The position numbers were made by a program. Source: a virus (Duplodnaviria; Heunggongvirae; Uroviricota; Caudoviricetes). Taken from it: a stretch of 28,285 nt of DNA. Position 1 is the stretch's first letter, and each line of letters opens with the position of its first letter. Of this stretch, positions 18,001 through 21,000 are shown piece by piece. Where the stretch lies: IMG/VR virus record IMGVR_UViG_2850761752_000007. The stretch is one strand, 5' to 3'.

Positions 18001-21000
18001 GCCTTCAGGAAGGGATAATCGGGAAGCGCCTTCACTGATCGAAAGTTGATTTTCAAGAACCGTTCTGACAGCTTCGGCTTTGAACTCTTTAGAGTAACGT
18101 TGGTTTTTTCTGCTCATTATTAGCTCCTTCTGATGCCATTCTATTTCAGGAAGGAGTGTCCGTTAAACTCAGGCTACCTCAGCCTGAGGGCAGGTGTAAA
18201 ACAATAATCAAGCATGGGGTTCATATCCATAGCTCCATTTTTATTTTAAGGAAAGCAACTGCTCTACGGTCATGTTTTTAATTGCGCCCCGGTTTACAAG
18301 AGTCCAGCCCTGTTTTTCCAGATAAAACCGGAAAGTCTCCAGGGTACAGACCAGTGCGCCATCAGGAACGGTTTCGGTGAATTCGACATTGCCGAATTTG
18401 TCGAAGTGAACAACCAGAGTGCGACCATCACCCGGAATCATCTTGTCAGCAGGTGGGGTGTTATTCTGGCGCAGTTCGGCCTCCATGCGGTCGAACTCAG
18501 CAATGTAGGCTTCCTTGAATGTGGCGGCTTTTTTGCCCGTGAAGCCCATCACCAGGAAAACGAAGCCGTTTTTGGTGATTTGGTAGGCGTTATAAGAATT
18601 GCCGCGGTGTTCGAATTTAACCCGCGAAAAGTTGCTGGTTAAAAATAGTTCAGAACATTCGAAGGATTCTATTTTTTGAACAACATGGTGATGCTGCTTG
18701 CCAAAAAACTCAGCAATCGAAATAGAAGTAGTGACGGCGCGACCATTTTCGATGGTTACGTCAGGGTGAGAAAGGGTAGTAGCCATAATGACATCCTCAA
18801 GTGATAAGTTAATTAACTCACCAGCAGAGGTGCTAATCTCATGGGTGGTGAGACGCACAGGGTTAGCACTACCGGTCACTCGAGAACCCGGCCAGCCTTG
18901 CGGCTGCCCCGCACGCCTCACCATAATTTGAATGTGGCTGTGCATTACGCATAAAAAAACCGCTTCAGCGCGGTTATGCGCTCGAGTAACTTTCGGGGTG
19001 CTAATCCCGGCACCCGTTTTATGAGGTGCAGGTGCACTATAATTCCACCCGTTCTGGTTTTCAATAGCTACATTCAACATTTTCTCTTTCCTTTCATCAC
19101 CGAAGTGAATTTTGTGATGCGGTGCCTAGTGCCTCCAGGTGACGTTAACCAGTTAACAATTACAGTCGGCTTTCCCACCCAAACCAATAAGGACTAACAT
19201 GACTTTTAACTGTGCCGCGTGCGCTTAGCCGCATTCACCGCATCACAAAATTCACTTTAAAAAGGGCGGACATCAGCCAGCAATTAAACCGATGCCGCCA
19301 ACTGGTACTTCACACAGCAATGTCGTTATTTACAACCGGAAGCGCACTCCCACCATTTAAATTTCACAGACAAGACCGACTCTTTATGAATACCGGAAAT
19401 GCGCCTTCGTGTTGTGCCCGGTTTTATTTCACCACCTCCGGGCTTTGGTGGCCTCGGCTATGAGGTAGCCTGAGTTTAACGGACACTCCTTCCTGAAATA
19501 GAATGGCATCAGAAGGAGCTAATAATGAGCAGAAAAAACCAACGTTACTCTAAAGAGTTCAAAGCCGAAGCTGTCAGAACGGTTCTTGAAAATCAACTTT
19601 CGATCAGTGAAGGCGCTTCCCGATTATCCCTTCCTGAAGGCACTTTAGGACAATGGGTTACCGCCGCCAGAAAAGGGCTCGGTACTCCTGGTTCCCGCAC
19701 GGTGGCTGAACTGGAATCTGAAATTCTGCAACTGCGTAAGGCGTTAAATGAAGCTCGCCTTGAGCGAGATATATTAAAAAAAGCAACAGCGTATTTTGCA
19801 CAGGAGTCGCTGAAAAATACGCGTTAATCGAACAATGGCGACAACAATTTCCCATTGAAGCGATGTGTCAGGTATTTGGTGTATCCAGGAGCGGTTATTA
19901 CAACTGGGTACAGCATGAACCCTCAGACAGAAAACAAAGTGATGAGCGGCTAAAACTGGAGATTAAGGTGGCACATATCCGCACTCGCGAAACATATGGA
20001 ACCCGGCGGCTCCAGACGGAGCTGGCAGAGAATGGCATCATCGTTGGTCGTGACCGACTGGCACGTCTTCGTAAGGAGCTAAGGCTACGCTGTAAGCAGA
20101 AACGCAAGTTCAGAGCGACTACGAACCCGAACCACAATCTGCCAGTTGCGCCAAATCTGCTGAACCAGACGTTCGCTCCTACAGCACCAAATCAGGTCTG
20201 GGTGGCGGACCTGACGTATGTTGCCACACAGGAGGGATGGTTGTACCTCGCTGGCATCAAAGATGTTTATACGTGCGAAATTGTCGGCTACGCCATGGGA
20301 GAGCGCATGACAAAAGAGCTGACAGGTAAAGCCCTGTTTATGGCGCTCAGGAGCCAGCGCCCACCTGCCGGGCTAATCCACCACTCTGATCGAGGTTCAC
20401 AGTACTGCGCATACGATTACCGGGTCATACAGGAGCAGTCTGGTCTGAAAACATCAATGTCGCGTAAAGGTCACTGTTACGACAACGCTCCGATGGAAAG
20501 CTTCTGGGGAACGCTGAAAAATGAGAGCCTGAGCCACTATCGTTTTAATAACCGGGATGAAGCCATCTCAGTAATACGGGAATACATTGAGATTTTCTAC
20601 AATCGTCAGCGTCGTCACTCTCGTCTGGGGAATATCTCCCCGGCAGCCTTCAGGGAAAAATATCATCAGATGGCTGCTTAAAAAAAGAACAAATGGTAGT
20701 GTCCGCTATTGCCAGTACACCTCACTATACCTCTACAGCGAGAATATTGAATTAATCCAATAAATGGATTAGCTGGTATTTTTGGCAAGCCAGCGACGTG
20801 CGCCAGCTTCGGTTTTAAACGTTTTGCTTTTGGTATACGTCATGGCGGTGAATGTGCCGTCCTGATTGGGAAACACGCCACACACTAGGGATTCGTTGTT
20901 GCCAAGATCGATAGTATCCATGCTGACCTCATTTCCCCTTAACGCCGGGGTAGTGGAACTGTTTGCTGAGAACACCGTGCGGTGTCTTGATGAATGAAAC

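Follow-up and report, generated by a model that had tools for sequence, protein, structure and literature searches.

The DNA analysed here, referred to as the window, is a stretch of 28,285 nucleotides (nt) from a virus of the class Caudoviricetes (IMG/VR record IMGVR_UViG_2850761752_000007). Its minus strand carries an early-left operon of the lambdoid Rac/Qin type, in which a dicA-like HTH_3 repressor gene (21127-21531) and a DUF1391/YdfA-like gene (20772-20921) lie upstream of a hairpin with a U-run, a 22-bp perfect inverted repeat, the small RNAs IsrK and C4, and a Rha-family antirepressor gene (Table 1). A preliminary description of the locus placed the hairpin downstream of the dicA/ydfA-like genes, which is correct, though a 1264-bp IS600 intervenes, and took it for a candidate DicF, the small RNA (sRNA) that inhibits ftsZ translation. 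The analysis leads to another interpretation. It is probable, though by no means certain, that the hairpin and the repeat represent two adjacent RNA elements of the operon, namely a variant of the sRNA KilS and an STnc100-like structured domain closed by an RNase III helix. The element is a variant of known phage RNA elements and not a new ftsZ-targeting division inhibitor.

Table 1. Features of the hairpin-repeat locus and its surroundings (window coordinates; helices are given in minus-strand order)
Feature	Position	Strand	Evidence or remark
KilS-like sRNA with DicF-family 3' hairpin, orthologous to K-12 Rac KilS (b4833)	19259..19353	-	alignment
Sub-threshold Rfam DicF match	19264..19314	-	RF00039 28.6 bits; terminator stem 19296-19269, T-run to 19259
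5' arm of closing helix (extended P1)	19236..19257	-	AAGUGAAUUUUGUGAUGCGGUG; repeat search and arm comparison
3' arm of closing helix	19103..19124	-	CACCGCAUCACAAAAUUCACUU; repeat search
STnc100-superfamily structured core, class B	19111..19252	-	RF02076 30.7 bits, model positions 21-154
P2	19232-19217	-	loop CUAAGCG
P3	19216-19214 / 19170-19168	-	short helix
Pseudoknot	19212-19206 with 19156-19150	-	CAGUUAA with P4 loop UUAACUG
P4	19167-19160 / 19148-19141	-	two mismatches in window copy
P5	19139-19125	-	loop AGGCA
Promoter-like -35/-10 (TTGAAA-17-TATAGT)	19036..19064	-	placed to start IsrK; consensus match only
IsrK RNA	18953..19029	-	RF01394 68.5 bits, threshold 50; overlaps c4-a1b1-like target motif 18990-19042
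C4 antisense RNA	18841..18928	-	RF01695 78.6 bits, threshold 45
Rha-family antirepressor gene	18241..18786	-	cargo in place of dicB/kilR
IS600	19461..20724	+	1264 nt; 100% inverted duplicate of 16918-18181; IS600 annotated on 100% identical plasmid copy

Both structures reported in the preliminary description are real. A terminator scan of 861 nt, which returned three terminator-like sites (0.9 expected), found the minus-strand stem with 10 pairs followed by CGCCCTTTTT, and a repeat search of the window found two 22-nt arms that are 100% complementary and separated by a 111-nt spacer. The chance expectation of a perfect 22-mer pair in 28 kb is ~1e-6 (4^-22 x ~1e7 position pairs). Read along the minus strand, the hairpin GGCGGCAUCGG-UUUAAUUG-CUGGCUGAUGUCCGCC is followed by UUUUU and AAGUGAAUUUUGUGAUGCGGUG, the exact complement of which lies 111 nt downstream; hairpin and T-run together span 19259-19296, and the repeat comes next. 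The fold of 19325-19095 on this strand has an energy of -85.9 kcal/mol (z = -3.95) and is dominated by the terminator hairpin and the 22-bp helix. The latter dominates both the minimum free energy (MFE) and the centroid fold, and its 22 uninterrupted perfect pairs reach the length of an RNase III substrate (~20 bp or more).

DicF, the 5' end of which is excised from the dicBF transcript by RNase E, inhibits division when overexpressed. The window hairpin resembles it in part. Segment 19353-19259 shares 71.9% identity with DicF and 83.3% (85/102 alignment columns) with the 98-nt KilS of the Rac prophage in Escherichia coli K-12 (b4833, NC_000913.3 1418405-1418502), and in alignment with the two sRNAs the KilS-like part appears mosaic. 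Its terminator hairpin is Rho-independent and shows the conserved GGCGG/CCGCC stem along with a U-run, and the similarity to the Rfam DicF model RF00039 is real (E = 5e-4, local search of 861 nt). The score of 28.6 bits, however, does not reach the gathering score of 48, while the model assigns 72.5 bits to the Qin-type DicF of phage Tritos, 43.3 to the E. coli CFSAN029787 copy and 39.1 to that of K-12 Rac. A scan with Rfam gathering thresholds likewise gave no DicF hit. The preliminary description had proposed this covariance-model search and had named the lack of a significant hit beforehand as refuting its proposal.

Alignment shows the terminator stem to be the part conserved with DicF and the 5' single strand and loop to be divergent. 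DicF uses its 3' region to pair with the ftsZ ribosome-binding site (PMC5069750), and the window loop, UUUAAUUGCUGG, lacks the ACUCCG anti-Shine-Dalgarno sequence that pairs with this site (CGGAG). The interaction with the ftsZ leader, another check proposed at the outset, was evaluated with a simplified, windowed and accessibility-corrected IntaRNA-like scan, replacing a whole-length RNAduplex comparison that was uninformative, as real sRNAs did no better than shuffles. The scan found no ribosome-binding-site pairing for the window RNA, the best interaction being -1.5 kcal/mol elsewhere, whereas ACUCCGU of canonical DicF pairs with CGGAGA at -12..-7 with -5.7 kcal/mol. Since the 5' single strand and the loop are unlike those of DicF, no DicF-style repression of ftsZ is expected, and the proposed ftsZ inhibition is not supported. 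DicF membership was rejected on the sub-threshold model score and the loss of the ftsZ-pairing loop. To judge from its sequence, the hairpin is best regarded as a KilS-type member of the DicF-like hairpin family and not as a DicF orthologue.

With KilS of Rac the window copy has in common the 5' region (GUGGGAGUGCGC.UCCGGUUGUAAAUAACGACAUUGCUGUGUG), the terminator stem and the structured element that comes next, which is 94.3% identical to the Rac copy. The two differ in the loop and in the stretch adjoining the stem on its 5' side (UUUAAUUGCUGG in the window, UUUUUUUCUUGAAGUUCGG in KilS), in the downstream genes, which are isrK-C4-Rha instead of kilR, and in the IS600 located 108 nt upstream, found only in the window copy. 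With DicF of Qin it has in common the terminator stem (UGGCGG.AUC.G ... CUGAU.U.CCGCC) and U-run as well as the operon slot, and the same structured element adjoins DicF on the 3' side in Qin and in phage Tritos; there is no conservation of the 5' seed or of the ftsZ-pairing loop. KilS was predicted from RIL-seq (ligation and sequencing of interacting RNAs) data and verified by northern blot as an expressed, Hfq-associated transcript of ~98 nt in K-12, which may have its own promoter and has yncL as a reported target (Bar et al. 2021, PMC8175672). By sequence inspection, TGTTAAATT, which precedes the KilS 5' end in K-12, resembles an extended -10; the minus strand of window 19354-19365 reads TGTGAAATT, with a T-to-G change at the first -10 position that might weaken a KilS promoter.

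The 111-nt spacer, overlooked in the preliminary description, is a conserved structured RNA of the STnc100 superfamily. In a local search, it matches the Rfam STnc100 model RF02076 with E = 1.1e-4 over positions 21-154 of 206, the 30.7 bits remaining below the gathering score of 47. Scores with this model are 141 bits for the canonical copy downstream of stx1B, 43 for the copy of P7, and 30-34 for the window-type subfamily. The STnc100 core fold is present in the window element, with the closing helix, P2 following GGUGAAU, P4, and P5 (CCNGG-AGGCA-CCNGG), which stacks on the closing helix. Model position 154 is the last one matched, and the element lacks its own 3' Rho-independent terminator, located at ~170-200 in the model of the ~200-nt STnc100 sRNA; in the window, a Shine-Dalgarno-like sequence and an ATG come after the 3' arm.

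Cores with the STnc100-type P2 were designated class A and those with the window-type P2 class B (84 distinct viral cores among the matches listed). A covariance model made from class A only, R1, recognized the window element with 67.3 bits and gave no further significant hit in the 28 kb; the searches made in the window, including that with R1, found no other copy of the element. Other class-B copies score 69.8-83.5 bits and canonical STnc100 scores 102 bits. What the comparisons made here show directly is the sequences with their homologies and the conservation of both the fold and the long helix. With a hand-written structure (P1, P2, P4, P5 and the pseudoknot) applied to 57 diverse cores, 82.8% of the cells are paired, compared to 38-41% with slid partners, and the covariation score is 0.422, compared to at most 0.118 in the slid controls. 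P2 and P5 are 100% paired in these cores and show compensatory changes, and when applied to class A alone, RNAalifold independently arrives at P1, P2, P4 and P5, with the short P3 in addition. In the window P4, the 5' strand is of Rac type (GACUGUAA) and the 3' strand of consensus type (UUAACGUC), a hybrid that suggests a crossover inside the element. A 37-codon open reading frame (ORF) in the spacer (TTG start, 19074-19187) overlies the variable region of the family as well as conserved helices.

As part of the interpretation given above, and with the same degree of confidence, we view the core as a divergent, operon-embedded subfamily of Rfam STnc100/PasD, folding as a multi-helix junction of ~140 nt (P1-P5 plus the pseudoknot). 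The window core has the P1/P2/P4/P5 architecture of STnc100/PasD/EcOnc27, a group of prophage Hfq-associated sRNAs, and shares with STnc100 the signatures GGUGAAU and CACCNGGAGGCACNNGGCACC along with a prophage-borne, multi-copy occurrence. It differs in P2, which is GCGG..CGC in the window and CCCC..GGGG in STnc100, in the lack of its own terminator, in being embedded in the early-left operon, and in a closing helix of 22-30 bp compared to ~10 bp. A preprint relates STnc100 to PasD (bioRxiv 10.64898/2026.05.13.724894), STnc100 copies are expressed in enterohaemorrhagic E. coli with one copy verified by northern blot (PMC5331693), and STnc100 overlaps the Hfq-binding sRNA EcOnc27 (PMC12711010). 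Among the papers searched, none was found linking STnc100 with the DicF/KilS loci, i.e., with the dicF-dicB and kilS-kilR gaps.

BLAST searches of 5426 complete E. coli genomes located the element in 4642 of them, at 10433 places in all and with a median of two copies each, and homologues were found in 41 phage records; almost all rows listed have no annotated feature under the match. The element sits 3' of a DicF/KilS-type terminator and 5' of dicB (Tritos, K-12 Qin), kil/kilR (K-12 Rac and several phages) or, in the window, Rha. The P7 copy lies upstream of terB and has no terminator before it. A pattern scan recovered at least 120 viral loci and at least 120 loci from one-genome-per-species representatives, covering many genera of the Enterobacterales, among them Citrobacter, Enterobacter, Klebsiella, Salmonella, Pantoea, Erwinia and Rahnella. 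The core also occurs in other genomic settings. Sequence L039 has a stand-alone core gene with a promoter-like sequence (2609-2638), the core (2647-2747) and a terminator (2782-2809), and canonical STnc100 copies have their own terminator. In phage tRNA arrays, STnc100-like cores are found 14-15 nt upstream of tRNA genes (L045 1542-1739, L046 2066-2266, L048 4104-4312, L183 11071-11270), an arrangement suggesting that these cores may be released by tRNA-processing enzymes.

Two further arrangements were observed in the survey. Tandem STnc100-like copies occur in L048 and L093. In the Klebsiella-type viral contigs L041, L013, L017, L053 and L073, a KilS/DicF-like hairpin (…GCUGUGUGUAGUCCUGGCGGUACCAG…) lies directly downstream of the class-B core, and because the hairpin is here 3' of the core, core and hairpin are shuffled as separate modules.

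P1 of STnc100-like copies mostly has 6-14 bp (ungapped count), while class-B copies located after a terminator have closing helices of 25-32 pairs that can take in the terminator U-tract. The 5' arm is almost invariant and the 3' arm varies with the downstream gene, with a bulge and wobbles in the dicB type, one bulge and two G.U pairs in the kil type, and perfect pairing in the Rha type. Equally long helices with different sequences are found in other lineages (L043, L059, L047, L055 and L196). Among 21 distinct arm pairs, 9 of the 22 pairs change on both sides, and G.U pairs are frequent at two helix positions (13 and 9 sequences). These double-sided changes and common G.U pairs argue for an RNA helix of the operon strand, rather than a DNA palindrome. 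Such a long-range helix of about two turns, flanking a structured RNA in a polycistronic transcript, is also characteristic of the RNase III processing stems in T7 early RNA, the lambda N leader and sib, and the flanks of 16S and 23S rRNA.

The RNase III dependence and the cut position come from the literature on the Qin homologue. According to passages in two papers citing Faubladier et al., RNase III makes the 3' end of a 72-nt DicF in K-12 Qin. With dicF at 1649382-1649434 in K-12, this end maps to L135:354, position 13 of the 22-nt 5' arm (L135:342-363). Since this end lies about midway along the homologous 5' arm, the stem most likely serves as an RNase III site, one that would trim the upstream sRNA and excise the core as an RNA of ~131 nt. 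The idea that the repeat is an RNase III substrate is thereby credible, both for the 22-bp stem itself and for the Qin end 13 nt into the homologous arm. While the mid-arm cut is that of Qin, cleavage of the Rac-type helix and of the Rha-type helix in the window would be expected by homology. By this analogy, the cut in the 5' arm is predicted between 19245 and 19244. RNase III leaves a 2-nt 3' overhang, and from this geometry the cut in the 3' arm is predicted near 19114/19113. A position in the dicF-dicB gap of Qin, 1649470, has 26 reads in the rnc mutant and 0 in the wild type and is flagged as known (Gordon 2017, Table S1); it falls inside the fragment predicted to be excised from Qin.

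In the mechanism we propose, transcription would read through the KilS/DicF terminator, allowing the long helix to form, and RNase III would cut the helix mid-stem at the two predicted positions. Cleavage would provide an alternative 3' end for the upstream sRNA, comparable to that of the 72-nt DicF in Qin, release the core RNA and leave the downstream message with a new 5' end. Cleavage of the window copy and release of its core as a discrete RNA are extrapolated from the homologue, and any function of the core would be a further step. RNase III excision is a plausible third route to the same kind of RNA, beside the stand-alone and tRNA-adjacent copies. A more far-reaching version, possible but less likely than not, is that the core is an autonomous, deeply conserved phage RNA, with a five-helix junction, a pseudoknot and invariant CUNNGCG and AGGCA loops. 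Prophages of the Enterobacterales would produce it in any of three interchangeable ways: as a gene with promoter and terminator of its own, through tRNA-type processing beside tRNA genes, or by excision from early-left operons, RNase III cutting a 22-30-bp helix.

Several points weigh against this interpretation of the locus. The perfect 22-bp version is rare, with 6 of 4765 E. coli records at least 99% identical, and it looks like a recombinant. The R1 score of the window element, 67.4 bits in this comparison, is the lowest of the class-B copies compared, and two pairs of its P4 are non-canonical. Because the pattern used to collect the cores holds GGTGAAT and CACCNGGAGGCACNNGGC constant, the motif conservation and the paired percentages are partly built in; the Rfam STnc100 match is independent of this pattern. 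Similarly, the 21 arm pairs were selected for long stems, and the weight there rests on the compensatory changes, not on the paired percentage. With respect to processing, the rnc-dependent position in Rac, 1418510 (Gordon 2017), precedes the KilS 5' end by 8 nt and is not in the helix, and Ragunathan et al. assign RNase III to the 5' end of a 190-nt DicF.

The reading that the preliminary description favoured, a functional DicF cut from a polycistronic RNA and blocking ftsZ translation, as an active division inhibitor with a swapped protein partner, draws on the homology of the hairpin stem and U-run to DicF, on the position in the operon, which is that of dicF, and on a long stem compatible with RNase III processing. 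The low model score, the replacement of the ACUCCG loop by UUUAAUUGCUGG without predicted ribosome-binding-site pairing, the closer relationship to KilS, which has yncL as its reported target (PMC8175672), and the IS600 between promoter and module make it quite improbable. It is unlikely, if somewhat less so, that the block acts as DNA, either as a lambdoid recombination boundary or as a protein-binding palindrome (GTTAAC-TG-GTTAAC), with the repeat lacking an RNA role. The near-invariant 5' arm next to a 3' arm that changes with the downstream gene (dicB, kil and Rha types) would fit such a boundary, as would the hybrid P4, which looks like the product of an internal crossover, and the mosaic KilS-like part. 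A role in recombination is compatible with an RNA role, yet it leaves the covariation unexplained: compensatory double changes and G.U pairs preserve P1, P2, P4, P5 and the long helix across divergent sequences, and the fold also exists as a stand-alone transcription unit. Of comparably low probability is a function of the long helix in cis, controlling translation or stability of the downstream gene. The terminator U-tract and 5' arm, by pairing with the leader, would determine how accessible the ribosome-binding site is, and neither RNase III nor a released core would be required. In all types, a Shine-Dalgarno sequence and ATG lie 10-25 nt past the end of the 3' arm, and in the MFE fold the Qin-type helix extends to GAGG of the dicB ribosome-binding site, this GAGG being paired with CGCCCUC on the upstream side of DicF. 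The window has its Shine-Dalgarno-like AGGAAAGAG (19092-19084) outside the helix, and the ATG at 19080, located upstream of the IsrK promoter-like site and opening an ORF that spans two RNA genes, is perhaps not a real start. This model would also leave unexplained why stand-alone copies have the same invariant internal loops.

The location of the core in long early and late phage operons could indicate a cis-acting antiterminator RNA like put of phage HK022. We regard this as very unlikely: stand-alone copies directly precede their own terminator, which argues against antitermination, and homology to HK022 put was rejected because HK022 has neither the signature motifs of the element nor an R1 hit. 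Hardly credible at all is a miniature inverted-repeat transposable element or a chance palindrome, although 22-bp perfect terminal repeats around a short 111-nt segment recall the former. There is no target-site duplication (the flanks are UUUUA and CGGUG), the position relative to terminator and downstream gene is fixed in thousands of genomes, bulges and wobbles show the two arms to have diverged independently, conservation extends to the internal RNA structure, and the chance expectation is low; with no duplicated flanks and a fixed operon context, this candidate was rejected. Retron-like a1/a2 repeats were dropped because no reverse transcriptase is nearby, no dedicated test having been made.

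A second long-range complementarity was noted between the two elements. The KilS 5' region (window 19340-19366) is complementary to the P2/pseudoknot half of the core (19200-19226, minus strand; GUGCGCUU / AAGCGCAC), with a duplex energy of -24 to -32 kcal/mol, and the same complementarity is present in the long DicF precursor (L002 ~1846-1853 and 2078-2085). The reported RNase III-dependent 5' end of the 190-nt DicF and the rnc-dependent position near the KilS 5' end are located at or beside the complementary segment, where a rival long-range duplex may form and RNase III may have a second site.

The IS600 copy at 19461-20724 is a simple insertion, placed 108 nt upstream of the 5' end of the KilS-like RNA in an intergenic region of Rac type. 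Both flanks are continuous with the sieB-kilR intergenic region of K-12 Rac, the upstream flank of the hairpin module, 19354-19460, matching this region. The insertion separates the KilS-like hairpin and the element from the DicA-controlled promoter on the dicA/ydfA side, and because of it expression of the window module from the early promoter is probably weak or absent, making the description as an active module doubtful. The locus is a decayed, rare recombinant and IS600-disrupted variant. E. coli CFSAN029787 has an intact equivalent free of IS600, in the order ydfA-ydfB-ydfC', hairpin, element, IsrK, C4, Rha, ydaE and recE. In the window, the two 100% identical inverted IS600 copies (16918-18181 and 19461-20724) bracket exactly 1279 bp containing the KilS-like sRNA, the element, IsrK, C4 and Rha. 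The pair resembles a composite transposon and the bracketed segment could invert. A ydaE-like ORF is truncated by the left copy, which adjoins tail genes.

As suggested in the preliminary description, the module occupies the dicF-dicB slot of Qin with its partner exchanged, the cargo being isrK-C4-Rha/antirepressor instead of dicB or kilR. The repeat was said to lie just upstream of Rha, which is imprecise: IsrK and C4 intervene. An IsrK/C4 pair before a Rha-family antirepressor, here above the Rfam thresholds, parallels immI of P1/P7 (c4-icd-ant) and isrK-anrP of Gifsy-1; in P7 the class-B core is located elsewhere than immI, in the ban operon upstream of terB. Phage_pRha matches residues 117-200 of ORF 18244-19080, and the annotatable reading frame reaches 19080 through IsrK and C4. 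The genes for these two RNAs sit inside the 5' third of the 279-codon 'Rha' ORF (18841-19080, minus strand), and the part carrying them is matched by Pfam Phage_ASH (residues 14-105). The long Rha coding sequence, annotated by RefSeq in the E. coli CFSAN029787 equivalent, may be over-extended, and a Shine-Dalgarno sequence with an ATG at 18786 begins MATTLSHP. The C4 loop and the two target copies co-vary between the window and L011. Elsewhere in the window, IS009 (128 bits) and CssrB, a Shigella chromosomal sRNA (229 bits), were found on the minus strand and a cluster of four tRNA genes on the plus strand, all among the features at 1233-1452, 2192-2371 and 24469-24776. With the IS600 copies, these features indicate that the source is a Shigella or an enteroinvasive E. 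coli.

For the window itself the message is modest, as there is no reason to expect repression of ftsZ from the locus. DicF/dicB and KilS/kilR are textbook prophage division-inhibitor loci. The gap of ~170 nt between sRNA and protein gene, unannotated in almost all rows listed, holds one of the most widespread conserved RNA folds of E. coli. An STnc100-type domain with an RNase III helix would explain an old biochemical observation, the 72-nt DicF, and its recognition links three separately named prophage sRNA families, i.e., STnc100, PasD and the window subfamily. The interpretation makes a testable prediction for K-12, where a ~130-nt rnc-dependent RNA should appear after derepression of Rac or Qin. 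If the core is autonomous, the dicF-dicB and kilS-kilR intergenic regions of K-12 would each encode an undescribed processed RNA, which would have a conserved protein or RNA partner and in which the variable internal arm might be the seed.

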